From the NCBI GenBank assembly GCA_965661945.1, contig CBFIFP010000001.1, positions 853,592 to 917,591 on the forward strand: a stretch of 64,000 nt of DNA. Direction: 5' to 3'. This DNA is from Candidatus Kapaibacteriales bacterium. GTDB taxonomy: Bacteria; Bacteroidota; Ignavibacteria; Kapaibacteriales; UBA2268. Position numbers and translations under genes: made by a program. Shown here one piece after another: positions 19,501 through 32,739 of the stretch (position 1 is the stretch's first letter; the number at the start of each line of letters is the position of its first letter). Under the pieces are notes generated by a model, which was not told the DNA's origin, did not search any database, and worked only from the letters and a program-made list of their open reading frames with translations.

Positions 19501-22500
19501 ACTGGATTAAACCCAACAAATTCAAACACCATTGAAGAATCTATCGAACCAGGAATTACCTTTGTCCTACCAAATTTATGGAACAAACCTCCATTAAAAG
19601 AAAAACTATTAATAACATTTAATGTGTCTAATCTTGTAAATCTATCTACCCTTGCGGTTAATGCACCTTGTATAAATTCTGTAACTTTACCATTATTATA
19701 ATTTCTTTTTGCAGGGAATCCCCTCCAAAATCTTAACTCCCTAAACTCTCCCTCAAATCCATTACTCCTCTTCCCACCCTGCATTATTGGAGTATATCCA
19801 AGATACATTCTTTTATTATTTAACGTGTCATAATTCAAATCATAAAAATCTTCTTCGCCGAAATCGTTTTCTAATTCAATACCATCTACCCATAATAAAT
19901 AAGGACTTTCCTGATTAAATGGATTAAAATAAAAAGCTATATGAACCCAAGCCGTGTCTGTTGTTGTTGAAATCGGCTCTGGAAGTCCTTTATTCGCATC
20001 AGATATTGCTCGCTTTAATTGATTATTGCTATTTCTGTAGGTGAACTCTAATAGCCCAAATTGATTCAATGACAAGTCATATTTAATATCATTTGTTAAA
20101 GAATCAAGCATTGAAAGAATTGGGAACACACTTTCACTTTCTGTAGGGAATCTATGTGGCTTTATCCAAGTTTCAATAAAAATTCCTTCCTTATTTGGCA
20201 GTAATTTACTTGTGCTATCTGAATAAATTTTATTACTTTTTGTCTTACGTAATGAAAATTCTCTTGAAACTATAAACTCATCAGTAGTGTTTGAAATAGT
20301 TCTTTGATTATGATTTTCGTGTCCTGTAATGCGAAGCATCACTCTCTTTTCGTATGGCTCTACATCTCTTAAACTTCCTCCAACATCATTACTTTGGTAT
20401 GGTTCCCAAGTTGCTCGGTTATCTTCCACATCAATCGCTCCATTACCACCAAGTTTTAAGCCCTGCTGGTTTTCCACCTGTACCCAAGTTGAGCCGCTAT
20501 TAGTTGAAAACTCTAAATACAAATCTCGTGAAAATCTTTGAGAATTATTCCCCAATCCAAAACTTATAAATCTAATGGGATAGTTCTGACCCTGCTCTAT
20601 AACTAAGCCAGTTCCTCTACTCGGAGATGTAATCCTTCCGTGTGGCAAATCTGGAACAAATTTTGGAATCTCGCTTATTTGTGTTCCTACAATATGTTGA
20701 AGATTATTTATTCCATTCTGAAATTGCGTATTTGTAGCATAATCTTTTAAATCATCACTAAGTTTATAATATAAATCTAAACCGGTTCTTGTATCCGGAA
20801 GCTGATTAATATCAATTGTAGCTGGATTTATAACTCCGGTAGAATACTTTCTAATTGAATCCTGACCAAAAGCCGTCCTCCATACTTTCACTTCTTTAAT
20901 TGCACCTGCGAAGTAATTTTTAGCATCTAACTTATTATTCGGATTAACTCCTACCCAAATTGGATGGTCTGTAATTAATAGTCTGTAATCGTTATTTTTA
21001 TTAATTATATCAGTTGCAACCAACTCGCCATCAACATATAAATATGCAATTGAGTTTTCCAATATTGCCGAAATATGTGTCCAATTTCTTGAAAATCCAT
21101 CTTCATTATCTGAAAATGCACTTGCTTTTATTGGGTCTTCTGCTACAAGATTTACAATATATCCGCCTGCACCCCTATTTTGATTTTCTCTTGCTCGGAA
21201 AGCAGGATATTTTCCATCCTTCAAATATAAAAGCCAAGCACCTTCTTTACTGCCAAATATTTCAGCTTGATTAGGCCCACCAGACGATGCAACAATTCCA
21301 ACTTCACCTGAATTTAATTTAGTTGGATTTACCCATGCTTCAATTGTTAGATGTGTCGGATTTGAAAATGTTTTTTCTGTTTTAAAATATTCATTTGCAC
21401 CATTCAAAAAACTTGTGAAATATACTCCCATTGCTTGAGTTTGTGCAGATTCTGAAACAAGATTAGTTTTTTCTCTATCTTCAATATTATCTTCTACACT
21501 ACCGCTAAGCATTGAAATTCTTAACTTTACATTGCTATTTCTTTCTCTAATATTTGTTGGTTTTGACCATAAAACTCTCATTGGGTTTCTGTAATTTGAT
21601 GTTCCAATAGCTTGCCCAGCAGATGAAGTTATAACTAAAGTTCCAACCCCTGTAGGTCTTGCAATATCACCAGAACGATAAAATACTGAACTACCTAACG
21701 CCCGATTATTGTGGTCGGCTACTCTTCCTATTTCTTTCCAACTTCCATCATTATATTCAAAACTATATGCAATATTACCGTTTAATATCCCAGGGTTTGC
21801 CTGCGGATTAACCGAACGCTCAAAATAAATTGGATAGCCAACTCCTTGATATGTATTTGCAAGTGATAAGTATGGCTTATCTCTATCAATTACTTGTCCT
21901 GTGAATTTTGGTGATAAAAGCGTTACACCGATAATCGTGAAGTTGCTTGGCTGTTTTAATGTTGCTTTGCTTGTGATATTAGTTGAGTTTACATCAAGAA
22001 CATTAGTTGCTGGGTTTGAAGTTAAAAATTTTATTCCTGTTTGAGTGTTAATTGCTGGGCTGTTTATAATATCAAATACAACTTTGCCAAGGAAAGAACC
22101 ACGTCCTGTTTGAAGTGGAATGAAACCCCCGCTCCCCATACTGATTAATCTTGCTCGGATGCCAATATTAGTTTGATTATTCAATGCCGATAAACTGGCA
22201 TATCCATTTGTGCTGTTGTAAACCGAATTAATTTGAATAAGTGGGTTTGCTTGGTCTATATTACTTGAGATTGAATCAGCAATACCATTCACGGTATTTG
22301 TGTTTGGTCTTAGAAAAGCAGAATTATACTCTAACCAAATTTGTGCATCACCAATAACCGGCGGATTTGGCTTTAGCGATTTAACCCAAATTTCTGCGTG
22401 TATTTGGTCATATTTGCGACGTTGGACAATATTGAACTCATAGTCTTGTCCTATAACATCAATAGCAAACATAAGCAAAAGCATTGCTATTACTACATTT

Positions 22501-22508
22501 CTTGACAT
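16578..22508 (-). CDS. Giant secreted T9SS cargo protein (1976 aa) with a LamG-like domain, a dockerin-like repeat pair and a T9SS CTD; paralog of the 2140-aa protein
   Basis: Signal peptide MLLLMFAIDVIGQ. LamG block LTIEAWVNPTKL...AWLLYLKDGKYPAFRA...IAYLYVDGELV. Dockerin AMVAGDANQDGRIDSTDIQDIL...DLNADSIVNAVDRIL. Shared block HLPIMSRFPAPFKYKGEDKSTWAIESGWDF. C-terminus ...GIYFLVLETDDGVFFEKFIKD (T9SS CTD). Confidence 0.8.
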   Translation of the reverse strand: MSRNVVIAMLLLMFAIDVIGQDYEFNIVQRRKYDQIHAEIWVKSLKPNPPVIGDAQIWLEYNSAFLRPNTNTVNGIADSISSNIDQANPLIQINSVYNSTNGYASLSALNNQTNIGIRARLISMGSGGFIPLQTGRGSFLGKVVFDIINSPAINTQTGIKFLTSNPATNVLDVNSTNITSKATLKQPSNFTIIGVTLLSPKFTGQVIDRDKPYLSLANTYQGVGYPIYFERSVNPQANPGILNGNIAYSFEYNDGSWKEIGRVADHNNRALGSSVFYRSGDIARPTGVGTLVITSSAGQAIGTSNYRNPMRVLWSKPTNIRERNSNVKLRISMLSGSVEDNIEDREKTNLVSESAQTQAMGVYFTSFLNGANEYFKTEKTFSNPTHLTIEAWVNPTKLNSGEVGIVASSGGPNQAEIFGSKEGAWLLYLKDGKYPAFRARENQNRGAGGYIVNLVAEDPIKASAFSDNEDGFSRNWTHISAILENSIAYLYVDGELVATDIINKNNDYRLLITDHPIWVGVNPNNKLDAKNYFAGAIKEVKVWRTAFGQDSIRKYSTGVINPATIDINQLPDTRTGLDLYYKLSDDLKDYATNTQFQNGINNLQHIVGTQISEIPKFVPDLPHGRITSPSRGTGLVIEQGQNYPIRFISFGLGNNSQRFSRDLYLEFSTNSGSTWVQVENQQGLKLGGNGAIDVEDNRATWEPYQSNDVGGSLRDVEPYEKRVMLRITGHENHNQRTISNTTDEFIVSREFSLRKTKSNKIYSDSTSKLLPNKEGIFIETWIKPHRFPTESESVFPILSMLDSLTNDIKYDLSLNQFGLLEFTYRNSNNQLKRAISDANKGLPEPISTTTDTAWVHIAFYFNPFNQESPYLLWVDGIELENDFGEEDFYDLNYDTLNNKRMYLGYTPIMQGGKRSNGFEGEFRELRFWRGFPAKRNYNNGKVTEFIQGALTARVDRFTRLDTLNVINSFSFNGGLFHKFGRTKVIPGSIDSSMVFEFVGFNPVYSGNKPYMRIVEPQEFTTIKQTNTNLKIRWVGFGLDNNGFTAGQRFGNPPSLQFSEKGGAGNSAVPYQYVGSNYFTGNTRNSLSLPDSNNYRFKEFGNNIIFAASVNISIANPDLNNDNLFIDQGALPIVTDNLRFRLTSRYVVESTPFQVRSESPLYTVIPGENFTLRVLLEGKHRGRTSPIEQIKTKYEEGGIKVTLLEDNYGKPGTKLASAEAVRGYEEQNVFHQNSGQRNFANLPFLFLDVNDGNYWVLVEQINHLPIMSRFPAPFKYKGEDKSTWAIESGWDFTSWNGSNNNFLVEGENPWTQQRYTAFGNGEAIKDSALWVSTGLNFNDGLIDAVVSPFPAMVAGDANQDGRIDSTDIQDILINTGGSNIQYDLNADSIVNAVDRILTQRNIGKVSSLGEYNYLVYGNSDTFTSSIDFDDKNEEQINKLNRLNKFNKTKEINSLLNNVAYEITSQTTVNNDIATVEFFIKSSGADLYLGNASFAFTFDTLKLDYLNYDNSGILFSNNQEAGYLNSFSAPNENTTLPYKNMRTIEIVLAQDKNGSLVPDIASSLGKLQFKIKTDDAIIQFNWHNSSIVYDNQRQNVNPLGIKEIISPIKQFDVRLLNPDGTKNFGVGQQIELKWVNEGNPIQLEYFNGTTWQKITDSVFSKEAESFEWRLPNNEIENARVRIIDASLSIELVRSEPFRIERRFGQIVSPSSNDRIYKGGEFVQVYFSTTGYDKIDIEYTEDGGDSWKVVKKGVDADSEKFSWTFPRTNTNVFYFRILSGNEIIDISDRIRVLNGSLNINTPNSSTEWNAGSNERVRWTSAGVDRFTLQFSLDGGVNWLDISRNVNATARYYNWDIPSIITDNAMIRAIWSDDPEMLYDMTSPFAIDLSSSTEFTQNQEKIFKLVNFESINNSIKINSKRNIKVNAKVYDIRGQLTTEIKTYFTLGNNVLYLNNNLTNGIYFLVLETDDGVFFEKFIKD

Positions 22509-22627
22509 ATTTCAACTCAATTTTATAAACAACACTACTAAGATGTCAATTAATGTGCCACTTGTTTTTTTTAGATATTACAAAATTGAGGAATATCTAT
22601 TGAAAAGTAAATAGGAGGAAATACTGA
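22437..22627. repeat. Direct repeat A (~191 bp). It covers the first ~20 codons, RBS and promoter region of the 1976-aa giant gene and is ~93% identical to 31022..31212.
   Basis: Aligned by eye. ...cctataacatcaatagcaaacataagcaaaagcattgctattactacatttcttgacatatttcaac...aatgtgccacttgttttttt...attgaggaatatctattgaaaagtaaataggaggaaatactga recurs at 31022-31212. Confidence 0.85.
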
Positions 22628-22642
22628 ATTGAAAATAAAAAG

Positions 22643-22673
22643 TGAAAAAAAGGAATTTACCTTTTTTTCACTT
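22643..22673. terminator. AT-rich perfect hairpin (GTGAAAAAAAGG-aattta-CCTTTTTTTCAC), a candidate terminator
   Basis: 12-bp perfect inverted repeat just downstream of the stop of the 22697..23113 gene. Confidence 0.4.
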
Positions 22674-22696
22674 GAATAATATTTAAATTTGATTTA

Positions 22697-23113
22697 CTAC
22701 TTGCTGTTAAGATTTAAATTCTTTATCTTTTTAACTTTGTCTTTATATTGTTTAATAAAAAAGTAAGTTAAATTCATGTAGTAAATTAAATTTAAACCAA
22801 CAAATAAATAATTTAAAATTTCTTTACTTTCAACTAAAAAATTTAGCAAAAAAGTAATAGAGATTATTACAATTAAAAAACTGTGCACCAAATTTAAATC
22901 AAATTCTGATGAATCAATTTTATTTTGATTATTATCCAAATTTGAAATTATTTTTAAAATCAAATTCTGAAAAATAATAAAAGAAAACATCACCATTTGA
23001 CTTTTAAAATTTTTGATTTCCAAAACATTTTCTTCAAAAAATGGAATCAAAAATATTTCAATTAATAGTATAATTGAAAATATTTGAATAAGTGTTTTTA
23101 ATGTATTTTTCAT
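22697..23113 (-). CDS. Small multi-pass membrane protein (138 aa), a candidate immunity protein of cassette 1
   Basis: Several hydrophobic helices (IFSIILLIEIFLIPFF, VMFSFIIFQNLILKII, FLIVIISITFLLNFLV). It sits directly downstream of the lipoprotein remnant and overlaps it by 4 bp. Confidence 0.5.
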   Translation of the reverse strand: MKNTLKTLIQIFSIILLIEIFLIPFFEENVLEIKNFKSQMVMFSFIIFQNLILKIISNLDNNQNKIDSSEFDLNLVHSFLIVIISITFLLNFLVESKEILNYLFVGLNLIYYMNLTYFFIKQYKDKVKKIKNLNLNSK

Positions 23114-23262
23114 ATTAATCCTTTACCATAAGTCAAAAGCATCCCAGATTGTTTCAACTGCTTCACCAATTCCTTTACCGGCGGTTCCTCTTTACAAGAC
23201 CATAGAAAAGTTGATAAAAATATCAAAGAAACAATGCTTAGTTTTTTTATAGTTATGCGTGT
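23110..23262 (-). pseudogene. Truncated remnant of the cassette lipoprotein: signal peptide plus ~25 aa only
   Basis: RBS AAGGAG followed by an ATG. Translation MTRITIKKLSIVSLIFLSTFLWSCKEEPPVKELV..., then stop. Paralogs continue for ~270 more aa. Confidence 0.6.
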
Positions 23263-23321
23263 CATAACATCTCCTTTAAAAAAGTTTAACAAAAAATTTC
23301 AAATATTTTTAAAAATTTCTG

Positions 23322-23380
23322 CTAAATTAAGCACTGATAAATTAAGCACTGCTAAATTAATATGCAAGAACTTTTTTTTC
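23322..23380. repeat. 15-bp tandem repeat array (~2.5 units: GCTAAATTAAGCACT-like) upstream of cassette 1
   Basis: gctaaattaagcactgataaattaagcactgctaaattaatatgcaag. The same unit family occurs upstream of all five cassettes. Confidence 0.8.
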
Positions 23381-23394
23381 ACAAAAGAGAAAGT

Positions 23395-23445
23395 TTTCCA
23401 CATTTTGTTGAGATTATTGGGGTTGGGTGGAAATTTTTTTTTAAA
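23395..23445 (-). promoter_or_regulatory. Conserved cassette box (TTTTCCACA-TTT-TTGA-ATTATTGGGGTTGGGTGGAAA), occurrence 1
   Basis: Nearly identical sequence at 28138-28190. Related copies at 26575-26625, 30783-30835 and 32740-32790. It contains the inverted repeat TTTCCAC...GTGGAAA. Confidence 0.5.
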
Positions 23446-23518
23446 ATATGGTTATAAAATAAAACATAATTATAATAGTCAATAGCAATAGTAACGCAAA
23501 ATAAATAAAAGATAAAAT

Positions 23519-23707
23519 ATGTTAATATTTGATGAAAAAATAGAAGCAAATAAATTAATCTTAAATCTACCAAATGAATTTATTGGTAAAGAGTTGGAAG
23601 TGCATATCTTTAGTAAAAAAGATAAAAACAAAATTAAATTCAAAAATTTAAGATTATTGAAAACAAAAGAATATAAATTTAATCGTGATTTAGCAAATGA
23701 ACGATAA
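23519..23707 (+). CDS. Type II antitoxin (VapB-like), 62 aa
   Basis: Small ORF overlapping the downstream PIN-domain gene by 11 bp. Classic TA operon arrangement. Confidence 0.55.
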   Translation: MLIFDEKIEANKLILNLPNEFIGKELEVHIFSKKDKNKIKFKNLRLLKTKEYKFNRDLANER

Positions 23708-24104
23708 AGTTTTTATTGATTCTAATATCTGCATATATTGCTATTCTGATGATGAATTAGAAAAATCAGAAATTGCAAGAAAAATAATTATTAAAAATAA
23801 TTCATTTACAAGTATTCAAGTATTAAAAGAGTTATCAAATACTTTAATTAAAAAATTCAAATTAGATTTTAAAAATATTGAAAATATTATAAAAGAACAA
23901 ATTGAATTAAATAATGTTTATTTAAATAATGAAACAGATATTTTAAATGCTTTAAAAATATCAAATAAATACCAATTTAGTTTTTATGATAGTTTAATTA
24001 TATCTTCTGCTATATCTACAAATTCAAATATATTATATTCTGAAGATATGCAACACAATCAGATGATTGAAAGTAAATTAAAAATCATCAACCCGTTTTT
24101 ATGA
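23697..24104 (+). CDS. PIN-domain toxin (VapC-like ribonuclease), 135 aa
   Basis: N-terminal VFIDSNICIY (first acidic PIN residue) and C-terminal FYDSLIISSAI motif. Confidence 0.7.
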   Translation: MNDKVFIDSNICIYCYSDDELEKSEIARKIIIKNNSFTSIQVLKELSNTLIKKFKLDFKNIENIIKEQIELNNVYLNNETDILNALKISNKYQFSFYDSLIISSAISTNSNILYSEDMQHNQMIESKLKIINPFL

Positions 24105-24111
24105 TTATCTC

Positions 24112-24345
24112 TTATTTTGAATAGAATAGAATTAAGTAAAAAACTAATCTTCTACCCTTCGGTGTTGGAATTTCTAGGTTCTCATTTTTAGCTACTTCTA
24201 ACCATAACTCAATAGCATCGTTTATATTATTTAGAGCATCAAATTCGGTATCACCATGAGCCATACAACCCGGTAATTCTGGGACATCAATAACGAAACA
24301 ATCGTCTTCATCGCTCCAGTATATTATTTTTTCATATTTATTCAT
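24112..24345 (-). CDS. HicB-family (UPF0150-like) antitoxin, 77 aa
   Basis: IIYWSDEDDCFVIDVPELPGCMAHGDTEFDALNNINDAIELWLE matches the HicB/UPF0150 signature (YSxxIEWSDEDxxYVAxVPELPGCxAxGDT). Confidence 0.65.
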   Translation of the reverse strand: MNKYEKIIYWSDEDDCFVIDVPELPGCMAHGDTEFDALNNINDAIELWLEVAKNENLEIPTPKGRRLVFYLILFYSK

Positions 24346-24590
24346 TTTCTTCCCAACTGAATGAAAAGATGTAAAAAATTTTTATTATATCTTTTTTGTC
24401 TTACAGCATCAACTTCCTTGATTATCTCTTCCATAGATATATCATTTGGATTTGTTTTTAGCTTTGCTAACGTTTTTAAAAATCTATCATCAACGTCATC
24501 TGAAACAATCTTAGTTATATTCATTGTTTCTAAATCGTTTAATAGATTTTTAGCAAGAGGATTATTTAATTCTATTGATAATCTTTCCAT
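24342..24590 (-). CDS. Small antitoxin-like protein (82 aa); paralog of the antitoxin paired with a PIN toxin at 28584..28805
   Basis: MERLSIELNNPLAKNLLNDLETMNITKIVSDD... is ~85% identical to the 28584..28805 product. It overlaps the downstream HicB-like gene by 4 bp. Confidence 0.5.
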   Translation of the reverse strand: MERLSIELNNPLAKNLLNDLETMNITKIVSDDVDDRFLKTLAKLKTNPNDISMEEIIKEVDAVRQKRYNKNFLHLFIQLGRK

Positions 24591-24711
24591 TTTATCTTTT
24601 AATTTATATATTTTAAATAAAGACGTAGAATTAGAATACTTTATTATTTTGAATTTAATTTATAAAATATTGAAAATAGATATTCGTTAATAGACAAAAC
24701 AAAGAATAACT

Positions 24712-24915
24712 ATGCAAGAAAATTTAAAATCAAATATTATAAGCAAAATAAATGAATTAAATGATACAGATGTATTATTCGAAATAGATTCTTTATTGCA
24801 AAATCATAAAAAAATGACACTCGAAGAATATCAGTTAAAAATCAACAATGCTGAAAAAGATATTTTGGAAAATAACCTTTATTCTTCTGAAGAAATATCA
24901 AATTTACTATTATGA
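24712..24915 (+). CDS. Type II antitoxin (ParD/RelB-like), 67 aa
   Basis: Small acidic protein whose stop overlaps the start of the RelE/ParE toxin gene (ATGA). Duplicate at 28928..29131. Confidence 0.55.
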   Translation: MQENLKSNIISKINELNDTDVLFEIDSLLQNHKKMTLEEYQLKINNAEKDILENNLYSSEEISNLLL

Positions 24916-25208
24916 AATATATTGTTTCCTGGACAAATTCTACGAAAATTGACCTTCAAGAAATTTTAGATTATTATTTAATAAATGAAAATTTTAGTAT
25001 AGCTAAAAACCTATTAAATAAAATATTAAAATCCGTGACTTTATTAGAAAGGAATCCCAAACTAGGAAAATCTGAAACTTTGTTAGATGGTGATTACAGA
25101 TTTATTCAATCAGGAATTTATAAAATAGTTTATAAAATAAATAATAAACGAATATATATAATAGCAATATTTGATAACAGAAGAAACCCAGATGAATTAG
25201 TTATTTAG
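24912..25208 (+). CDS. RelE/ParE-family toxin, 98 aa
   Basis: ...LLDGDYRFIQSGIYKIVYKINNKRIYIIAIFDNRRNP is the hallmark C-terminal region of RelE/ParE toxins. Near-identical copy at 29128..29424. Confidence 0.75.
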   Translation: MKYIVSWTNSTKIDLQEILDYYLINENFSIAKNLLNKILKSVTLLERNPKLGKSETLLDGDYRFIQSGIYKIVYKINNKRIYIIAIFDNRRNPDELVI

Positions 25209-25227
25209 TGCAATTATTTTCTTATTA

Positions 25228-25262
25228 AGTAACATCAACAAGGGGTTTTGATGCCCCTTGTT
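25228..25262. terminator. Recurrent hairpin element CAACAAGGGG-ttttgatg-CCCCTTGTTG (bidirectional terminator between convergent genes)
   Basis: Perfect ~10-bp stem. The same element is found at 26773-26810 and 29445-29480. Confidence 0.6.
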
Positions 25263-25277
25263 GAGTGATAAGTTGTT

Positions 25278-25478
25278 TTATTTTAAATTATCTATATTTT
25301 TATTTGAAAAATAAATTACATTCCCAAGTAAAATCCCTAAAATAATTTCAAATAAAAATGTTGGTTCATAGTCTTCAAAAATAAATATTGCAACATTAAA
25401 AGCAAAGACTGAAAATATTATACACATTAGCATTGTTAAAATGTAATTAATTTTTCTATTTTTTGTTATTTTTTTCAT
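25278..25478 (-). CDS. Small membrane protein (66 aa, 2 TM), a candidate immunity protein of cassette 2
   Basis: Hydrophobic helices YILTMLMCIIFSVFAFNVAIFIF and LFEIILGILLGNVIYF. Directly downstream of the cassette-2 lipoprotein. Confidence 0.5.
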   Translation of the reverse strand: MKKITKNRKINYILTMLMCIIFSVFAFNVAIFIFEDYEPTFLFEIILGILLGNVIYFSNKNIDNLK

Positions 25479-25505
25479 ATTTATAATTCTCTTATTATAA
25501 TATAA

Positions 25506-26419
25506 TTACCAATCCAACCACCAAGGTAGCCCACCGGCTGCTTCTCCAATAGCTGCTTTAACTGAGTTTATTCCTGCTCCTACCATAGCAGCACCAAGGG
25601 TAATAGCTGCTATTCCACCTGGTCCAGTAGCAACAACCGCTTCTGGATTTGTAGCAAAAAACATCAAAGCTCCACCAGCTCCACCTACTGCTCCACCGAT
25701 ATCTTTTCCCATAACATTTTTTGCAGCAGGACTTAAATCTAATAATTTTGTTTTTGAGGAATTAGATTTATTTTTATTAATACTTATTTTGATAGTTTCA
25801 TCTACATTACCCAATTCTACCCAATCATCTTAATTAGAAGTCCAATAATTTATTGTATATTTTGCTACCATTAATGTTGCACCTACTATATATTTTTCTA
25901 TCAAACTATCTAAACTATATGCTACTGGTATTTCAGAATCACAATATTGATTAAATTGTACTAAAGTCATATTTTCATCAACATATTCATTAAATACACT
26001 ATCCAAATCAGATAACATATTAAATGCTTCTTCTGTTATATCTGGATTTGAGTTCAAATAATCACTTAATGTAGCGTAAATATTAACTTCCATAGAGTCA
26101 ATATATGACAAATCGTAATTTTTATCTTCCGCAAAATTTATGACTTCATTATAAATAAAATCATTAATTGAATCTTGTGGATGAGGATCAATTTCATTTT
26201 TTATTCGAAGCAATTTGTTGTAAATGTGTCCATACATTCATTATGATGAGTACCTACATCATTTACAGCAGTTAAATAATCATTATATGTTATTGTAGCA
26301 GAATTAGTTATCCTAATCCCATCACCACTCCTAACTGGCGGTTCCTCATTACAAGAGAATAATATTGTTGATAATAAAATCATAGAATAAATGCTTAGTT
26401 TTAGTGTTATGTATTTCAT
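25506..26419 (-). pseudogene. Cassette-2 surface lipoprotein with a Gly-zipper/microcin-like C-terminus, disrupted by one -1 frameshift (~26215) and one in-frame TAA (25827-25829)
   Basis: Three ORF-track pieces (26201..26455, 25830..26237, 25506..25814) are collinear with the intact paralog 27108..27977. The N-terminus is MKYITLKLSIYSMILLSTILFSCNEEPPV. The VGTHHNE motif is present. The C-terminus is ...GGAVGGAGGALMFFATNPEAVVATGPGGIAAITLGAAMVGAGINSVKAAIGEAAGGLPWWLDW. Confidence 0.7.
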
Positions 26420-26469
26420 AATCACTCCTTTTATTAATTTAACAAAATTATTCAAATAAAATTTGAATT

Positions 26470-26560
26470 TCTGCTAAATTAAGCAATGCTGAATTAAGCA
26501 ATGCTGAATTAAGCAATGCTGAATTAAGCAATGCTAAATTAAGCAATGCTAAATTTAGTA
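26470..26560. repeat. 15-bp tandem repeat array, ~5.5 units of GCTGAATTAAGCAAT / GCTAAATTAAGCAAT
   Basis: ctgctaaattaagcaatgctgaattaagcaatgctgaattaagcaatgctgaattaagcaatgctaaattaagcaatgctaaatttag. Confidence 0.9.
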
Positions 26561-26574
26561 GAAAATTATTTTTT

Positions 26575-26625
26575 TTCCACACAAGGAGTATTTTTCCACA
26601 ATCTATTGATATATATAGATATATA
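26575..26625 (-). promoter_or_regulatory. Conserved cassette box variant (TTTTCCACAATCTATTGATATATATAGATATATA)
   Basis: Shares TTTTCCACAAT-TATTGATAT with the other four cassette upstream regions. Confidence 0.45.
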
Positions 26626-26772
26626 AGTTTATTTTTTTTTATTATTTTTTTTATATATGGACTTAGGAAGCATAAATTGGTTAATAGTTGTGTTTGTTTT
26701 TGGGTTTTGATTAATATTCAACATCGGAGATGTTGAATAGAATAGAATTAATTTAATATAATTAATAAATTA

Positions 26773-26810
26773 TTTAATACAACATCAACAAGAGGTTTTG
26801 TTGCCCCTTG
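26773..26810. terminator. Recurrent hairpin CAACAAGAGG-ttttgttg-CCCCTTGTTG
   Basis: Same element family as 25228-25262. It lies between cassette 3 and the upstream region of cassette 2. Confidence 0.5.
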
Positions 26811-26829
26811 TTGAGTAAAATTTGTTTTA

Positions 26830-27135
26830 TTACAAATTGTTCTTGCTTTTTATTTTGCTTTTTTTATATTTTTCTAGCTCAAAACAAAAAATACCACACA
26901 TCAAGCCAAAAACAATTGAAACAATAATTACTGAAGAGTCATAAACATCATCAGTTCCAAAAAGTAAAATATAGACAATTATTTGTAACAAAAACATTTC
27001 AATTATTGAAAATATAGTGAGTTTAATTCGAGATTTATATTTAAAATCAAAATATATTTTTATAACTGATAATAAAATCTTCTTTGAATTATGCTCTTTC
27101 ATATTTATCAACCAGTTATGCCTTGCAACCACCAT
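26830..27135 (-). CDS. Small membrane protein (≤101 aa; the start may be the internal MKEHNSKK), a candidate immunity protein of cassette 3
   Basis: Two hydrophobic helices (LTIFSIIEMFLLQIIVYILLF; VIIVSIVFGLMCGIFCF). It overlaps the 3' end of the lipoprotein gene. Confidence 0.5.
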   Translation of the reverse strand: MVVARHNWLINMKEHNSKKILLSVIKIYFDFKYKSRIKLTIFSIIEMFLLQIIVYILLFGTDDVYDSSVIIVSIVFGLMCGIFCFELEKYKKSKIKSKNNL

Positions 27136-27977
27136 GGAACATCTATCACAATAGAAAGTGCTGATACACCAGACGCAGCTGCACCACCGACTAGTCCTGC
27201 ATTAATTGTAATGGCAATAGCTACTGCTGGTCCTCCAACCCAACTATAGTATAGTCCGTGAACAGCACCTCCTACTGCCCCAGCAACATCTGCTGATATG
27301 ACTCTTTTAGCTTCTGGGCTTAATGCTAATAATCTATTATTATTTTTATTCTGATGTTTCAATTCATTCTTTATTTGTATAGAACTTTCTTCCTCAAGCA
27401 AGTCAATCCAATCATCAAAATTAGTATTCCAATAATTAGCCGAATTTTTTGCTACACTTAATGCAATACCAACAACGTAAGCTTCAGTGATTGAATCTAA
27501 TGAATATGCTATGTTTATATTTGTATTGCAATACGTTTCAAATTGCATAAGAGTTATTCCATCATTAGAATACACATTAAAAACACTATCTAAACTAATC
27601 AGCATATTTTTTGCAGATTGACTTAAAATAGTATCAGTTGTTAAAATATCATTAATTGCAATTGGGTTAAAATAAAAATCTGATATCCCAGTAGTATCAA
27701 CATTGGAATTATCAAACCCATTAACATAAGCAAAAGATAGTGAATTTCCTATTAGGTAATCCAGTAGAGGAATATCTGGTTGTTCTATTTCATCGTTTTT
27801 TATTTTAGAAAGCAAAGTATACATACTGTCTAAGTACTCATTATGTAAAGAACCAACTGTATTTACATCATTTGTAAAATCATACAAACTTACACTATTT
27901 AATATTCTTAAATTTTGTGTAGAATTAACCGGCGGTTCCTCTTTACAAGAGAATAAAATTGTTGATAATAATATCAT
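27108..27977 (-). CDS. Cassette-3 surface lipoprotein with a Gly-zipper/microcin-like C-terminus (289+ aa). The body is intact, but the ancestral ATG of the signal peptide is ATC here, so the ORF track starts at an internal Met.
   Basis: Upstream in frame: AAAGGAGctgttATCAAGCACATAACACAAAAACTAAGCATTTTTTCT... = (I)KHITQKLSIFSMILLSTILFSCKEEPPV. Conserved VGSLHNEYLD motif. C-terminus ...RVISADVAGAVGGAVHGLYYSWVGGPAVAIAITINAGLVGGAAASGVSALSIVIDVPWWLQGITG with GxxxG zippers. Confidence 0.7.
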   Translation of the reverse strand: MILLSTILFSCKEEPPVNSTQNLRILNSVSLYDFTNDVNTVGSLHNEYLDSMYTLLSKIKNDEIEQPDIPLLDYLIGNSLSFAYVNGFDNSNVDTTGISDFYFNPIAINDILTTDTILSQSAKNMLISLDSVFNVYSNDGITLMQFETYCNTNINIAYSLDSITEAYVVGIALSVAKNSANYWNTNFDDWIDLLEEESSIQIKNELKHQNKNNNRLLALSPEAKRVISADVAGAVGGAVHGLYYSWVGGPAVAIAITINAGLVGGAAASGVSALSIVIDVPWWLQGITG

Positions 27978-28064
27978 AGAAAAAATGCTTAGTTTTTGTG
28001 TTATGTGCTTGATAACAGCTCCTTTATCTTAATTTAACAATTATTCAAATAAAATTTGAATTTC

Positions 28065-28125
28065 TGCTTAATTAAGCAATGCTAAATTAAGTAATGCTAA
28101 ATTAAGATGCAAGAACTTTTTTTTC
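28065..28125. repeat. 15-bp tandem repeat array (~2.5 units) upstream of cassette 3
   Basis: ctgcttaattaagcaatgctaaattaagtaatgctaaattaagatgcaag. Confidence 0.8.
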
Positions 28126-28137
28126 AAAAAAAGAGAA

Positions 28138-28190
28138 AGTTTTCCACAATTTATTGATATTATTGGGGTTGGGTGGAAATTTTTTTTTGG
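28138..28190 (-). promoter_or_regulatory. Conserved cassette box, occurrence 3 (nearly identical to 23395-23445)
   Basis: agttttccacaatttattgatattattggggttgggtggaaatttttttt. Confidence 0.5.
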
Positions 28191-28192
28191 TA

Positions 28193-28600
28193 TTAATAAT
28201 CTTTTAAGATAAATTCAAATTCACTATATTTTATGATTTTAGTATATCCAATTTGATTTAAAACTAATAAGTCATAGTCCCCAGTAATTATAAAATCTGA
28301 ATTGCTATCAACTGCAAGATTTAAAATAAAATTGTCTTTTCTATCTCTACAAATTTTTATGTTTGATTCAATGTGAATTTGTAAACCATATTTTTTCAAT
28401 AAATCTATAATATTATTGACATCATCTTCTTCAAAATACTTTTTAAATTTTTTTCTTTTAGATACATCTTTAATTTCATCTAATAGTTCATCAGAATAAA
28501 CTAAAGTAATAATATTATTCTTCAATAAATTATAAATCACTTCGAATTTATTTGATATTAAAAAATAAATCCAAACATTAGTATCAAATATTATTTTCAT
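28193..28600 (-). CDS. PIN-domain toxin (TIGR00305-like putative TA toxin), 135 aa
   Basis: MKIIFDTNVWIYFL (first PIN acidic residue) and DFIITGDYDLL near the C-terminus. It overlaps the upstream antitoxin gene. Confidence 0.7.
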   Translation of the reverse strand: MKIIFDTNVWIYFLISNKFEVIYNLLKNNIITLVYSDELLDEIKDVSKRKKFKKYFEEDDVNNIIDLLKKYGLQIHIESNIKICRDRKDNFILNLAVDSNSDFIITGDYDLLVLNQIGYTKIIKYSEFEFILKDY

Positions 28601-28805
28601 TATATCTTTTCTGTCTTACAACATCAACTTCCTTGATTATTTCTTCCACAGAAATATCATTTTTTTTAGTCTTTAGCTTAGCTAAAGTTTGTAAAAATCT
28701 TTCATCAACGTCATCTGAAACAATTTTAATCAAATTAAGTGTTTCTAAATCATTTAATAGATTTTTAGCAAGCGGATTAGTTAATTCTATTGATAATCTT
28801 TCCAT
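28584..28805 (-). CDS. Antitoxin partner of the PIN toxin (73 aa)
   Basis: MERLSIELTNPLAKNLLNDLETLNLIKIVSDD... It overlaps the PIN gene by 17 bp. Paralog of 24342..24590. Confidence 0.55.
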   Translation of the reverse strand: MERLSIELTNPLAKNLLNDLETLNLIKIVSDDVDERFLQTLAKLKTKKNDISVEEIIKEVDVVRQKRYNENNI

Positions 28806-28927
28806 TTTTTTTTATTTAATTTATGTATCTTAAATAAAGACGAAGATTAGAATACTTTATTTTTTGAATTTAATTTATAAAATATTGAAAATAGATATTC
28901 GTTAATAGACAAAAACAAAGAGTATCT

Positions 28928-29131
28928 ATGCAAGAAAATTTAAAATCAAATATTATAAACAAAATAAATGAATTAAATGATACAGATGTATTATTTGAAA
29001 TAGATTCTTTATTGCAAAATCATAAAAAAATGACACTCGAAGAATATCAGTTAAAAATCAACAATGCTGAAAAAGATATTTTGGAAAATAACCTTTATTC
29101 TTCTGAAGAAATAGCAAATTTACTATTATGA
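28928..29131 (+). CDS. Type II antitoxin (ParD/RelB-like), duplicate of 24712..24915
   Basis: 67 aa, ~98% identical to the 24712 copy. It overlaps the downstream toxin start. Confidence 0.55.
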   Translation: MQENLKSNIINKINELNDTDVLFEIDSLLQNHKKMTLEEYQLKINNAEKDILENNLYSSEEIANLLL

Positions 29132-29424
29132 AATATATTGTAAGGTGGACTAATTCTGCGAAAATTGACCTTCAAGAAATTTTAGATTATTATTTAATAA
29201 ATGAAAATTATAGTATTGCTAAAAACCTATTAAATAAAATATTAAAATCCGTGACTTTATTAGAAAGGAATCCCAAACTAGGAAAATCTGAAACTTTGTT
29301 AGATGGTGATTACAGATTTATTCAATCAGGAATTTATAAAATAGTTTATAAAATAAATAATAAACGAATATATATAATAGCAATATTTGATAGCAGAAGG
29401 AACCCAGATGAATTAGTTATTTAG
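29128..29424 (+). CDS. RelE/ParE-family toxin, duplicate of 24912..25208
   Basis: 98 aa differing at ~4 residues from the 24912 copy. The flanking non-coding sequence is also duplicated. Confidence 0.75.
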   Translation: MKYIVRWTNSAKIDLQEILDYYLINENYSIAKNLLNKILKSVTLLERNPKLGKSETLLDGDYRFIQSGIYKIVYKINNKRIYIIAIFDSRRNPDELVI

Positions 29425-29444
29425 TGCATTTATCTTTTTATTTA

Positions 29445-29480
29445 GTAACATCAACAAGGGGTTTTGATGCCCCTTGTTGA
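29445..29480. terminator. Recurrent hairpin CAACAAGGGG-ttttgatg-CCCCTTGTTG (third copy)
   Basis: Identical to the element at 25228-25262. Confidence 0.6.
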
Positions 29481-29524
29481 TTTGGGAATAAAACAAGAAT
29501 TATTTATAATATTTTAATAAAATC

Positions 29525-29785
29525 TTACTTTTTTAAATTACTATCTAAGTTTTTATTTCTTTTATTAGCTATAAAATAAATAATATAGCCACCAAAAGAA
29601 CCTGCAATTATAGATCCTAAAATAGATGGTTTACTTTTAGTCAAATTAAAACCATACATTATAAAGTCAATTACTAAAAGCAAAATGATTGTAAAAATCA
29701 TTATATTTACAACTCTTTTAGTTAGAAATCTTCTAAATTTTAGAAAATTATTTACTAATTTATTTAAAGCCAATCTAACCACCAT
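29525..29785 (-). CDS. Small membrane protein (86 aa, 2 TM), a candidate immunity protein of cassette 4
   Basis: IMIFTIILLLVIDFIMYGF and ILGSIIAGSFGGYIIYFIA helices. It overlaps the lipoprotein 3' end. Confidence 0.5.
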   Translation of the reverse strand: MVVRLALNKLVNNFLKFRRFLTKRVVNIMIFTIILLLVIDFIMYGFNLTKSKPSILGSIIAGSFGGYIIYFIANKRNKNLDSNLKK

Positions 29786-30659
29786 GGAGCTCCTGCAGCG
29801 ATTTTTACTGCCTTTTTCAAAGATTTAGTTCCAGCATAGACCATTGACACACCAATTGCACCAGCAAAAGCACCACCTGGACCTGCAGATAATCCTCCAG
29901 CGATTAATACAGCAAAAGCTCCTTGTTTGGCACCCTCCAAATCCTGATTAATCACATCTTTGCCATCTTGACTTATTTCAAGTAATTTATTACTTTTTGA
30001 ATTAGATTTAGATTTTGAAACCAAATTAGTACTTTCTTCTATATCATTCATAAGGTTAAACCAGTCATCGTAATTTTGATTCCAATAGTTAGCAGTATGT
30101 TTAGCCACTGCAAAAGTTAACCCTATAGAAATTTTTTCTGAAAGACTATCTAAATTATATGCTAAATTTATATTTGAGTTACAATATGAATCAAATTGAG
30201 CAATTGTAATATTATTATTAGCTAATTCAGTAACCATACTGTCTAAATTTAATAACATTTGCTCAGATTGTTCTGTTAAGTTCGGACTTGTTTGTAAATA
30301 CCCTACTATATCTCTTGGATAAATTATTGAAGATGTATCTAAATAATCTAAAATATAACCTTTATTATCAGCAAAATTGTAAACTTCAATTCTTATAAAA
30401 TCATCTATAGATATGTGTGGTTGAGTATCAATTCCTTCTTTAATTCTATATAGTTTTTCATATAACGTGTCAAGAACTTCATTATGATGAAGACCTACCA
30501 TATTGACTGTATCAACATAGCCAGAATAAGTAATATTAGTAGTTAAATTTTGATAGAACTCTCCACCACTTCTAACTGGTTATTCCTCTTTACAAGAGAA
30601 TAATATTGTTGATAATAATATCATAGAAACAATGCTTAGTTTAAGTGTTATGTGCTTCA
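29764..30659 (-). pseudogene. Cassette-4 surface lipoprotein with a Gly-zipper C-terminus. It carries an in-frame TAA replacing the Pro codon directly after the lipobox Cys-Lys-Glu-Glu. The ORF track shows only the piece from the internal Met (29764..30501).
   Basis: ATGAAGCACATAACACTTAAACTAAGCATTGTTTCTATGATATTATTATCAACAATATTATTCTCTTGTAAAGAGGAATAACCAGTTAGAAGT... = MKHITLKLSIVSMILLSTILFSCKEE*PVRSGG, in frame with MVGLHHNEVLD... The C-terminus ends ...GGLSAGPGGAFAGAIGVSMVYAGTKSLKKAVKIAAGAPWWLDWL. Confidence 0.65.
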
Positions 30660-30711
30660 TAACAGCTCCTTTATATTAATTTAACAAAATTATTCAAATA
30701 AAATTTGAATT

Positions 30712-30770
30712 TCTGCTAAATTAAGCAATACTAAATTAAGCAATGCTAAATTAATATGCAAGAACTTTTT
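30712..30770. repeat. 15-bp tandem repeat array (~2.5 units) upstream of cassette 4
   Basis: ctgctaaattaagcaatactaaattaagcaatgctaaattaatatgcaag. Confidence 0.8.
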
Positions 30771-30782
30771 TTTCACAAAAGA

Positions 30783-30835
30783 AAAAGTTTTCCACAAATC
30801 ATTGGGGTTGTTGGGTTTGGGTGGTGAATTAAATT
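30783..30835 (-). promoter_or_regulatory. Conserved cassette box, degenerate occurrence 4
   Basis: gttttccacaaatcattggggttgttgggtttgggtggtgaatt. Confidence 0.4.
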
Positions 30836-31021
30836 TTTTTGATTTGTTAAAATTCAACATCTCCAATATTGTGGGTAGGTGGTAGGTTTATTTTTCTACA
30901 AATATTTTACATCTCCGATGTGGGTTAGAAAATTAAATATATTTGATTTAGATTATTATGATTGAATTTTACAATTATTTATAAATTTCATTGCTTCGGA
31001 GAAGCATAATATTTGTAGCAT

Positions 31022-31212
31022 AATTTACCCCCCTGCCCTACAACATCCATAGCAAACATAAGCAAAAGCATTGCTATTACTACATTTCTTGACATATTTC
31101 AACCCAATTTTATAAACAACACTTTAATAGGTCAATTAATGTGCCACTTGTTTTTTTAGATTTTACAAAATTGAGGAATATCTATTGAAAAGTAAATAGG
31201 AGGAAATACTGA
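31022..31212. repeat. Direct repeat B (~191 bp), a copy of the promoter/5'-end region of the 1976-aa giant gene. It encodes only a truncated signal peptide (MSRNVVIAMLLLMFAMDVVGQGG... then stop).
   Basis: ~93% identity to 22437-22627. The minus-strand translation gives the giant protein's first 20 residues, then diverges and terminates. Confidence 0.85.
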
Positions 31213-31224
31213 GAAAATTAAAAA

Positions 31225-31256
31225 AACAAGGGCAATGATGCCCTTGTTTTAATTAT
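31225..31256 (-). terminator. Hairpin terminator (ACAAGGGCA-atga-TGCCCTTGT) downstream of the 31273..31644 gene
   Basis: 9-bp perfect stem flanked by A/T runs on both sides. Confidence 0.55.
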
Positions 31257-31272
31257 TTTAATATGATTATCG

Positions 31273-31644
31273 TCAAAGTTTCTTTAAAATTGGTGTGATA
31301 ATATCAGACTTAAAATCATTATAACTTAAAATATCTCTCTTAAATCGAGGAAAGTATTCTAATCTAATTTGATCTTTAAATAAATCCAATTTTATAAAAT
31401 ACCCAAAATCATTAAATTTTATTTTACTTTCAAATATGGTTGTATTTTCTTTAGTTGCTAATTTTTTTAAATCAATACCTTTTAATACATCAACAATAAA
31501 TTTATATTTTGTTTTATCATTTGATATATGGTAAACATAATAGGCTCTCCTTTTTCCTGAAAATTTTCGTATTCTGAAATAAGAATATATTAAAAAATTT
31601 ACTATTAGAAATGATAAAGATAAGACAATTAAATTAAATTCCAT
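31273..31644 (-). CDS. Membrane-anchored small protein (123 aa; one N-terminal TM), a candidate immunity protein of cassette 5
   Basis: MEFNLIVLSLSFLIVNFLIYSYF TM helix followed by a charged soluble domain. It lies downstream of the cassette-5 lipoprotein pieces. Confidence 0.45.
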   Translation of the reverse strand: MEFNLIVLSLSFLIVNFLIYSYFRIRKFSGKRRAYYVYHISNDKTKYKFIVDVLKGIDLKKLATKENTTIFESKIKFNDFGYFIKLDLFKDQIRLEYFPRFKRDILSYNDFKSDIITPILKKL

Positions 31645-31662
31645 TTGTTTATTCCTTTGTAT

Positions 31663-32555: not shown

Positions 32556-32609
32556 AACAACTCCTTAAATAAATTAAACAAAAATATTACTTTCGTAAAA
32601 AGTAATTTC

Positions 32610-32710: not shown

Positions 32711-32739
32711 TATCCAAATTATTTTTTTCGATACAAGGA

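Follow-up and report, generated by a model that had tools for sequence, protein, structure and literature searches.

A truncated duplicate of a T9SS cargo gene 5′ end as a probable recombination scar in an array of lipoprotein cassettes

In the window, i.e. the whole 64,000-nucleotide (64-kb) stretch of DNA analyzed here, the promoter and 5′ end of a giant T9SS cargo gene occur twice: once in front of the intact gene and once, truncated after the signal peptide, on the far side of an 8.6-kb block of cassettes and toxin-antitoxin (TA) modules (Table 1). The distal copy is probably a displaced, non-functional 5′ fragment of the gene, that is, a recombination scar that marks a former boundary between the cassette array and the gene, and no dedicated attachment site. 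The two copies are collinear and direct, and one of them is truncated at a join that is absent from related genomes, as in a segmental duplication that left a scar.

Results

Base-by-base reading delimited the homologous segment to 183 nt in the proximal and 181 nt in the distal copy. The two copies show 94.0% identity over 182 aligned positions, with 9 substitutions, 2 indel positions and identical runs of approximately 50–55 nt, and their unique flanks are different. In blastn, 22447–22641 aligned to 31034–31223 with 92.8% identity over 195 nt. MAFFT, repeat search and blastn agreed on a single collinear direct repeat with a spacing of 8585–8587 bp, and a 39-mer common to both copies was found exactly twice in the window and in none of 100 shuffles. 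The original prediction of a ~93% direct repeat at 22437–22627 and 31022–31212 thus held for the repeat and its collinearity, but not for the outer 8–10 nt (22437–22444 and 31022–31031), which are not homologous. Each copy consists of 119 nt upstream of the ATG, codons 1–21, which correspond to the predicted signal peptide of the 1976-aa protein, and the first base of codon 22. This agrees with the start codon, signal-peptide codons and ~120 bp of upstream sequence expected from the earlier reading, whereas the RBS placed in the repeat had to be discarded: the AGGAGG motif (22613–22618) lies on the plus strand, 105–110 nt upstream of the minus-strand start, and is not the RBS of this gene. The blocks ATTTTGTA and AGTGGCACATTAATTGAC within the repeat are invariant across lineages.

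The repeat pair is genuine. Two short-read contigs, L102 and L091, end within the repeat, which could be taken to indicate a collapsed or duplicated repeat created by assembly; yet such breaks are what a genuine repeat is expected to cause in short-read assembly. Moreover, the copies differ from each other at the positions given above and lie in different unique flanks, and both junctions are reproduced by independent assemblies from another sample. The probability of an assembly artefact is therefore negligible, and the collinearity of the copies, the other point on which the original prediction could have failed, was upheld.

Table 1. Positions of the features discussed in the text (window coordinates)
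Feature	Coordinates	Strand	Description
Giant T9SS cargo gene, 1976 aa	16578..22508	-	Laminin_G_3 domains and type A sorting domain
Proximal repeat copy	22445..22627	-	119 nt promoter/5′ leader and codons 1–21 of the intact giant gene
Intrinsic-terminator hairpin ending cassette A	22640..22673	-	Directly upstream of proximal copy
Cassette A	22632..23442	-	Truncated 51-aa lipoprotein stub (ATG at 23265) and 138-aa membrane ORF
TA modules	23519..25208		62-aa ORF and PIN (+); 82-aa ORF and HicB-like (-); 67-aa ORF and ParE (+)
Cassette B	25231..26650	-	ORF in three fragments, then 66-aa membrane ORF
Cassette C	26781..28188	-	289-aa lipoprotein-family ORF (start ATG changed to ATC) and 101-aa membrane ORF
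TA modules	28193..29424		73-aa ORF and PIN_3 (-); 67-aa ORF and ParE (+)
Cassette D	29447..30840	-	Lipoprotein ORF 30660–29764 with CAA to TAA nonsense change at codon 27; 86-aa membrane ORF 29525–29785
Complex junction at truncated end of distal copy	30885..31029		34-nt inverted-repeat arms 30885–30918 and 30996–31029
35-aa stub ORF of distal copy	30988..31095	-	Signal peptide and GGKLCYKYYASPKQ, then stop
Distal repeat copy	31032..31212	-	Same promoter, leader and 21 codons; ends after signal peptide
Intrinsic-terminator hairpin ending cassette E	31223..31250	-	Directly upstream of distal copy
Cassette E, outside repeats	31213..32936	-	Promoter region with 6.7 copies of 15-bp repeat, two ORFs, terminator

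The assignment of the giant gene product as a T9SS cargo protein was based on a match to TIGR04183 (30.6 bits vs. a cut-off of 23); Laminin_G_3 was also matched, and no match to Rhs or CdiA was obtained. The gene is a 30%-identical paralog of a 2140-aa gene at 1828–8250. The best sigma-70-like match in the region, TTGACA-18-TAAAAT (22549–22520, 11/12), lies in the proximal copy, and the distal copy has a corresponding match, TTGACC-17-TAAAAT (31135–31107).

As predicted, the distal copy duplicates the giant-gene promoter and 5′ end in truncated form, and its ORF encodes just a short peptide, MSRNVVIAMLLLMFAMDVVGQGGKLCYKYYASPKQ, followed by a stop. The duplicated coding part stops precisely where signal-peptide cleavage is predicted by eye (VIGQ|DY), which could hint at a modular function and speak against a random breakpoint. 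Past codon 21, MAFFT and blastn found no residual homology to the giant gene in the distal copy. The breakpoint-side arm of the junction begins at the breakpoint and is an inverted copy of nearby cassette-upstream sequence, while the other arm belongs to the normal cassette upstream regions (30891–30942 resembles 32845–32896). The arms match at 27 of 34 positions, a value reached in none of 300 Markov simulations (maximum 23), and the RNA fold of the junction hairpin has a z-score of −5.7. Instead of a repair footprint, this hairpin may represent an element that functions as RNA or DNA. A small palindrome, ACATCTCCGATGT, is also present near the novel join.

The original prediction had offered the footprint of a deleted giant-gene paralog as one origin of the distal copy: two tandem giant genes would once have been present, and the upstream one lost from codon 22 onward. 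The window does hold a diverged pair of such genes, and a truncated 5′ end is the expected remnant of such a deletion. Against it stand the lack of residual gene homology past codon 21 and the inverted copy of adjacent cassette-upstream DNA at the breakpoint, which a simple deletion does not predict. Moreover, no relative with two tandem copies at this site was found (L084, L085, L087 and L103 have one each), and this route would take both a duplication (at least 14 kb) and a deletion (at least 6 kb) where one event would do. We therefore regard this origin as very unlikely.

The region from 22.6 to 33 kb comprises five cassettes on the same strand, with TA modules interspersed. The cassettes follow a common plan. 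A promoter with 15-bp repeats precedes the ORF of a variable helical protein, which has a conserved lipoprotein signal peptide and a hydrophobic, glycine-rich tail at its end; a small membrane ORF and a terminator follow. Past the distal copy the array continues with cassette E, so that the two copies do not bracket the whole island, contrary to what had been proposed. The lipoprotein ORF of cassette E (32555–31663), accompanied by a 123-aa membrane ORF (31273–31644), is broken by a 1-nt deletion here and is intact, with 297 aa, in L084, L085 and L087; the corresponding ORF of cassette D is intact in the sister strain L094. Within the array, 28593–29480 is a 94% duplicate of 24378–25264. The cassette proteins matched no Pfam or NCBIfam family, the sole trace being a weak match to Gly-zipper_Omp (E = 0.078). 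An AF2 model of a cassette protein was all-helical (pLDDT 75.6) and gave no Foldseek match in the PDB at E ≤ 0.001. Self-BLAST of 22000–33400 detected no similarity between the cassettes and the body of the giant gene. The architecture of the cassettes suggests that they are toxin/immunity-like and bacteriocin-like.

A scan of the island ORFs and the larger ORFs of the 64-kb window detected no integrase, excisionase or transposase domain. This bears on a further explanation, a site-specific integrative island inserted in the 5′ end of the gene and carrying a replacement promoter and 5′ end, with the repeats as attL and attR. Direct repeats flanking an accessory block rich in TA modules would fit such an element, and so would a gene kept intact by the new 5′ end that the block supplies. 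Apart from the lack of a recombinase among the scanned ORFs, however, the cassette type inside the block is the same as that outside, as cassette E shows. The edges of the repeat are a cassette/terminator boundary and a complex illegitimate junction, with no short common core, and a repeat of 183 nt with 94% identity is far longer than typical att cores. We consider an integrative island highly improbable. An integron was likewise rejected. Integrons consist of promoterless cassettes, each ending in attC, that are served by a common Pc promoter and an adjacent IntI. No Phage_integrase or other recombinase domain was found among the same ORFs, and each cassette here opens with a conserved upstream module of its own, in which 15-bp tandem repeats precede the leader and signal peptide, and closes with a plain hairpin/T-run terminator.

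A functional module is conceivable, in which the promoter orphaned in the distal copy was co-opted for cassette D and the following genes, or in which the 35-aa stub is a small secreted peptide. The distal copy has intact candidate promoter elements and shares its orientation with cassette D; two strains retain both the stub ORF and the hairpin at the junction; and the duplicated coding part is the entire predicted signal peptide. Nevertheless, the two strains are 99.4% identical here, so that this conservation is uninformative. Cassette D has its own promoter module, as have all other cassettes, its main ORF carries a nonsense codon in this genome, and a strong hairpin separates it from the orphan promoter. 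We judge such a function unlikely. It is compatible with an origin of the distal copy as a scar.

Comparison with a sister strain (98–99.7% identical) revealed both repeat copies on independent contigs. In L001 (ENA ERZ23491156; 99.66% identical) the distal copy has the same flanks, and in L103/L104 (ENA scaffold_3962 and NCBI GCA_964452265.1) the proximal copy is joined to the giant gene. The latter contigs carry a different cassette between 23207 and 22631, with 98–98.7% identity on both sides; a cassette of 386-aa and 151-aa ORFs replaces cassette A. The swap ends at 22631, the upstream edge of the repeat. Because it ends there and because both copies abut an intrinsic terminator, the upstream edge of the repeat is a cassette boundary. 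The distal copies of the two strains are 99.4% identical, while their proximal copies are only 91.2% identical in front of a giant gene that is 98.7% identical. Each strain's proximal copy is distal-like, but in a different sub-segment, and the repeat copies of the two strains form a recombination mosaic.

In a more distant, related lineage the array is again found directly upstream of the giant-gene promoter, as in every lineage seen. In L084/L085 (six samples) cassette E with its terminator is followed by the promoter and an intact 1970-aa giant gene, with nothing in between. This order fits the predicted addition of the block by recombination within the giant-gene 5′ region, since cassette E directly precedes the promoter and intact gene there. 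In L087/L088 the order is cassette E, cassette X, promoter and giant gene, and L084 and L087 differ by exactly one cassette and one copy of an 87-nt repeat. Such a gain or loss of one cassette between 87-nt repeats is an analogue of a repeat-mediated excision or amplification of the block. In this related lineage each cassette is bracketed by shorter counterparts of the duplication, direct repeats of 88–223 nt, which consist of the terminator, the spacer and the first ~20–35 nt of the promoter region. Cassette E is 98–99.5% identical between genomes whose giant genes are only 72–75% identical; cassettes therefore move between lineages. This high identity ends at 31221. Comparison of the genomes showed cassette exchange by homologous recombination, in which one homology arm is the conserved 5′ module of the cassette and the other the promoter region of the giant gene. 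The novel join after codon 21 is present in the two strains and absent from L084, L085, L087 and the proximal copies. A scan of metagenome DNA yielded just one contig.

Discussion

Among the genomes found, the arrangement with a single copy occurs in the more distant lineage (gene 72–75% identical) and in no genome of the same species; for this reason we infer the order of events. The duplication would have arisen once, before the split of the two sampled strains. An 8.6-kb block, which starts upstream of cassette D, spans the array as far as its last cassette and includes the promoter and the start of the gene, would have been placed before the gene. One exchange would have been homologous, in the promoter or the gene, and the other illegitimate, with a template-switch-like join behind codon 21 in the resident copy. 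The block may have come from another strain by homology-facilitated illegitimate recombination, or from the sister chromosome by tandem duplication followed by cassette turnover; the data fit both routes, and we slightly favor import.

Join points of bacterial tandem duplications, as well as quasi-palindrome and template-switch junctions, are known from the Roth-lab literature on gene duplication and amplification. The locus resembles them in the direct repeat, the one novel join, the short inverted local copy at the join and the small palindrome nearby, and also in that the repeats then permit RecA-dependent loss or amplification. Unlike in a simple recent tandem duplication, the two units are very unequal (~1.9 kb vs. 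8.6 kb) and have almost only the 183-nt segment in common; therefore later cassette turnover or an external donor would be needed. The integrative element SXT inserts in the 5′ end of prfC and supplies a new promoter and 5′ end. Here, too, an accessory block lies between direct repeats and the target gene is intact by virtue of a substitute promoter and 5′ end, but no integrase or excisionase was found among the scanned ORFs, the repeat measures 183 nt and one edge is an illegitimate complex junction. Taken together, the distal copy is most likely a recombination scar in a fast-changing cassette array and not a site dedicated to a mobile element.

Displacement arrays of effector-immunity modules are found in the T6SS clusters of Vibrio cholerae (Kirchberger et al., 2017, PMC5361080). 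In these a conserved stretch beside the variable toxin/immunity module serves as a homology anchor, and modules are newly acquired by horizontal transfer. Replacement of modules occurs by homologous exchange, and rarer homology-facilitated illegitimate recombination displaces old pieces, which gives arrays of leftovers (PMC5361080). The orphan modules of Rhs and CDI loci, cited in that paper, are a further parallel. Our locus is similar in its cassette swaps with conserved flanks and its cross-lineage cassette identity. In contrast to the V. cholerae arrays, the displaced piece is neither a toxin 3′ end nor an immunity gene, but the promoter and signal peptide of a neighbor gene. It also differs from the T6SS, Rhs and CDI systems in that the gene of the displaced segment has no detectable similarity to the cassettes, the array lies upstream and not downstream of the large gene, no T6SS, Rhs or CdiA protein is involved, and the cassettes carry their own promoters. 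In Rhs/CDI-type loci the orphan modules are homologous to the pre-toxin region of the main gene and can thereby recombine into its 3′ end. A locus of this type was accordingly rejected, given the dissimilar cassettes, the upstream array and a gene with Laminin_G_3 and a T9SS sorting domain.

For the cassettes themselves, as distinct from the repeat, there are analogies in SitA/SitI, the polymorphic lipoprotein toxins of myxobacteria (PMC5562445), and in the glycine-zipper contact-dependent bacteriocins CdzC/CdzD (PMC5380434). In the cassette proteins, too, the lipoprotein signal peptide and N-terminus are conserved, the body is variable and the C-terminus is hydrophobic and rich in glycine, and, as in toxin-immunity pairs, a small partner ORF adjoins each of them. 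No sequence or fold relationship was detected.

As by-products of these events, gene conversion between the two copies is plausible, as is RecA-type deletion or amplification of the block, and transcription from the orphan promoter may extend into cassette D. The proposed homologous excision of the island between the repeats accordingly retains its plausibility from the identical runs and the L084/L087 analogy; on the other hand, none of the contigs found showed the 8.6-kb block deleted or as a circle, and two strains keep both copies.

A wider role of the locus is a tentative thought, and we hold it to be rather doubtful: the giant-gene promoter region may provide a fixed anchor for an integron-like but recombinase-independent platform that captures and shuffles lipoprotein toxin/immunity cassettes, with the duplicated segment as a second docking site allowing reversible loss or amplification of the 8.6-kb block. 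If so, cassettes with conserved 5′ (promoter and signal peptide) and 3′ (terminator) ends would be shuffled by homologous recombination, also between lineages.

A direct repeat duplicates the 5′ end of the giant gene

Two segments of the window, described in the original prediction as 191-bp repeats, were concordantly recovered by MAFFT, a repeat finder and BLAST as one collinear direct repeat. BLAST aligned 22447-22641 with 31034-31223 at 92.8% identity over 195 nt, with an offset of 8585-8587 bp between the copies, and a 39-mer of the repeat has just two occurrences in the window and none in any of 100 shuffles. Base-by-base reading placed the homologous segment at 22445-22627 (proximal copy) and 31032-31212 (distal copy), with 94.0% identity over 182 aligned positions; the core of the predicted repeat was confirmed, but its outermost 8-10 nt are non-homologous. 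All genes concerned lie on the minus strand. Each copy comprises 119 nt upstream of the ATG, codons 1-21 and one extra base, and the distal copy continues into a 35-aa stub ORF. Judged by eye and by comparison with a paralog at 1828-8250 (30% identical), the signal peptide is cut after VIGQ, so that the signal peptide is all that is duplicated of the coding sequence. The AGGAGG at 22613-22618, previously named as an RBS, lies on the plus strand more than 100 nt from the start codon and is not the RBS of the giant gene. Annotators should treat the 35-aa ORF as a fragment of a gene and expect breaks in short-read assemblies at the repeat site.

Two blocks, ATTTTGTA and AGTGGCACATTAATTGAC, are invariant across lineages and present in both copies. 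The best sigma-70-like match in the region is kept in both copies, at 11/12 in the proximal copy (TTGACA-18-TAAAAT) and at 10/12 in the distal copy. A scan for such motifs overall gave no enrichment (86 found vs. 94.5 expected from shuffles), and we relied only on the position and conservation of the match inside the repeat, which suggest that both copies may have promoter activity. Functional co-option of the orphan promoter or stub peptide is a weaker explanation for the distal copy, with no observation in its support.

Exact-protein look-ups for the giant protein and for a 138-aa ORF returned no record, and the N-terminal 400 aa of the giant protein, used as a homolog query, yielded only three matches, all distant. 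Between the two giant genes with Laminin_G_3 domains lies a 2544-aa ORF (8333-15967) without a Pfam match and without similarity to either; its ortholog, ~70% identical, is located downstream of the giant gene in L084 and L085, contigs of a more distant lineage.

The repeat lies within an array of lipoprotein cassettes

Five minus-strand cassettes, A to E, make up the array, which extends from 22.6 kb to ~33 kb. Every cassette starts with an upstream module containing a 15-bp tandem repeat in 2.6-6.7 copies, followed by a conserved leader with a lipoprotein signal peptide (MKxITLKLSI...LFSCKEEPPV), a variable protein with a glycine-rich and hydrophobic C-terminal tail, a small membrane ORF and a hairpin-plus-T-run terminator. 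Toxin-antitoxin modules (PIN, PIN_3, HicB-like and two ParE) are placed between the cassettes. The repeats had been proposed to bracket this island; yet cassette E (31213 to ~32936) is found beyond the distal copy, and therefore the repeats sit within the array, not around it. An island of the integrase type is likewise a weaker reading: a search of the island and of the window's larger ORFs found neither integrase nor transposase, and the repeat has a length of 183 nt and one illegitimate edge.

The cassette proteins had no match among Pfam or NCBIfam families. For the 289-aa cassette protein, AlphaFold predicted an all-helical structure (pLDDT 75.6), and a Foldseek search with it against PDB gave no match. 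From their architecture, the cassettes may represent toxin/immunity pairs.

Coordinates of array features, the giant gene and related repeats (L094, sister-strain contig; L084, L085 and L087, contigs of the more distant lineage)
Feature	Position	Strand	Remarks
Cassette A lipoprotein ORF	23110-23265	-	51-aa stub
Cassette B lipoprotein ORF	25506-26455	-	three fragments
Cassette C lipoprotein ORF	27108-28016	-	start codon ATG changed to ATC
Cassette D lipoprotein ORF	29764-30660	-	CAA to TAA nonsense change at codon 27; intact in L094
Cassette E lipoprotein ORF	31663-32555	-	1-nt deletion; intact 297 aa in L084/L085/L087
TGCTAAATTAAGCAA tandem repeats	23319-23360, 26472-26555, 28065-28106, 30716-30754, 32610-32710		upstream of cassettes
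Giant gene, 1976 aa	16578-22508	-	Laminin_G_3 domains, T9SS type A sorting domain; proximal copy runs into gene
Distant-lineage direct repeats	L084:8767-8854, 10389-10476; L087:1-223, 1623-1845		

Lipoprotein ORFs are seemingly damaged in all five cassettes of the window, and the membrane ORFs downstream are intact, a pattern resembling toxin decay with retention of immunity. The 15-bp tandem repeat, TGCTAAATTAAGCAA, is near-palindromic and precedes every cassette; judged from BLAST overlap, cassette E of the sister-strain contig L001 has ~3 more units than that of the window. The repeat could act as an operator array or as an expression-tuning VNTR. A small palindrome, ACATCTCCGATGT, occurs with zero mismatches only upstream of cassettes B, D and E (26721-26733, 30909-30921 and 32863-32875), with a degenerate copy at 30857-30869. 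With two mismatches allowed, the window contained five matches (0.69 expected), including one at 8952 that does not lie in the island. The array also contains a further internal duplication (24378-25264 vs. 28593-29480, 94% identity). This 890-bp duplicate spans a ParE toxin-antitoxin pair and part of an 82/73-aa ORF, while the adjoining bodies of cassettes B and D are only ~70% identical; divergence thus shifts abruptly inside a single duplicated unit.

The truncated end of the distal copy

Directly after codon 21 the distal copy gives way to a 34-nt stretch (30996-31029) that is an inverted copy of 30885-30918, 77 nt further on. The arms match at 27 of 34 positions (the maximum in 300 Markov simulations was 23), and the junction region folded far more stably than shuffles (z = -5.7). 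The far arm, which includes ACATCTCCGATGT, is ordinary cassette-upstream sequence with another occurrence before cassette E, and therefore the near arm is new sequence made at the join. Such an arm would be the signature of template-switch or fold-back illegitimate recombination, rather than of a clean site-specific event or a simple deletion. The 44-nt junction sequence had no exact copy in any fetched locus, L001 differing by one base.

Other elements were considered for this region and rejected. At 183 nt the repeat is far too long for a transposon target-site duplication. A MITE would have its terminal inverted repeats at 30885-31029, but just one of these arms is found again elsewhere, and there it is normal cassette-upstream sequence. 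An invertible promoter was rejected as no recombinase was found in the island or the larger ORFs and no second orientation was seen in L001.

Both copies are present in a sister strain

By exact-protein look-ups we obtained several independent contigs, among them those of a sister strain 98-99.7% identical to the window. L001 (ENA ERZ23491156) carries PD40, cassette E, the distal copy and the start of cassette D; L103, from the same sample, and L104 (NCBI GCA_964452265.1) carry cassettes C and B, toxin-antitoxin modules, cassette X, the proximal copy and the giant gene. With both copies on these contigs, the repeat is real and older than the split of the two strains. An assembly artefact is accordingly a weaker explanation, as the copies are divergent and both were reproduced by independent assemblies.

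Cassette X (386 aa + 151 aa) differs from cassette A, which occupies that place in the window. The replaced stretch is bounded by 23207, in the lipobox of the 5′ module of the cassette, and by 22631, the upstream edge of the repeat; thus the giant-gene promoter region is the downstream homology arm in cassette exchange. Over the 182-nt segment, identity between the two strains is 99.4% for the distal copies but only 91.2% for the proximal copies, with 98.7% for the gene behind the latter, and each proximal copy is distal-like in a different sub-segment. Recombination tracts or gene conversion at a cassette-swap boundary would be expected to leave such a mosaic, and therefore the 93-94% identity between copies is not a clock.

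Elsewhere, an OmpA-family gene (36366-36842) was called as a 158-aa TTG-start ORF in the window and L002, and in L001 and L003 as an OmpA-domain gene of 235 aa with an 87-aa ORF ahead of it, suggesting a truncation or frameshift in the window strain.

Cassette turnover in a more distant lineage

In the distant lineage, L084 (NCBI GCA_030431515.1) and L085 (a contig in six samples) show cassette E, terminator, promoter and an intact 1970-aa gene, and L087 and L088 the order cassette E, cassette X, promoter, gene. L084 and L087 belong to one lineage (cassette E 99.8% and gene 97.3% identical), and L084 equals L087 minus exactly cassette X and one copy of an 87-nt repeat. Direct repeats of 88-223 nt flank each cassette here with a period of 1622 bp; they are made up of the terminator, a spacer and the beginning (~20-35 nt) of the region upstream of the giant gene, and are a shorter version of the arrangement in the window.

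Between lineages cassette E is 98-99.5% identical (31221-32665 vs. L087, L089, L092 and L093), high identity ending at the terminator (31221), whereas the giant genes differ by ~25% (72-75% identity) and cassette X by ~28%. Cassette E has therefore moved recently between lineages, which points to horizontal transfer at the level of single cassettes. Among GTDB representative genomes, a synteny search via the neighboring PD40 protein gave 80 loci, the best 72% identical and none with shared neighbors; when a 31-mer taken from the signal-peptide codons was scanned against metagenome DNA, the only contig found was one already known.

Origin and meaning of the distal copy

We interpret the distal copy as a displaced 5′ fragment, the scar of a former junction between array and gene. 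In the proposed mechanism, an 8.6-kb block, which began upstream of cassette D, took in the last cassette and ended with a promoter and gene start, would have been inserted in front of the giant gene. One exchange would have been homologous; the other would have joined the block illegitimately to the resident copy after its codon 21. The block may have been imported from another strain by homology-facilitated illegitimate recombination, a model proposed for T6SS effector-immunity arrays (PMC5361080), or may be the product of an unequal sister-chromosome exchange with cassette turnover afterwards. Both routes fit the data; we slightly favor import, because it involves one event, explains the unshared flanks of the copies, and inter-lineage cassette transfer is demonstrated here. 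The original prediction was partly right: recombination as the origin is retained, while bracketing is not, nor is its other option, the footprint of a deleted giant-gene paralog. This last reading is weaker, since no gene remnant follows the breakpoint and no two-copy relative was found.

Between the copies there are identical runs of ~50-55 nt, and a homologous deletion of 22628-31031 would yield cassette E, the promoter and an intact gene, an arrangement like that of L084. In the related lineage, the polymorphism of one cassette between 87-nt repeats shows that such events occur at this locus; no deleted or circular form of the 8.6-kb block was seen among the contigs recovered.

The repeat itself is an ordinary recombination product in a hot spot, of value as a marker of the former meeting point of array and gene. 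A duplicative recombination scar in a polymorphic cassette array is of a kind already known; new in form is the displacement of the promoter and signal peptide of a neighboring T9SS giant gene into the array upstream. Together, the repeat and the sister-strain and cross-lineage comparisons show that small lipoprotein cassettes upstream of this gene are swapped, gained and lost via conserved flanks, apparently with no dedicated recombinase. The array and its recombinase-free cassette exchange are of greater interest than the repeat, and if the cassettes are real toxin/immunity pairs, they would constitute an uncharacterized competition locus in low-GC Bacteroidota.
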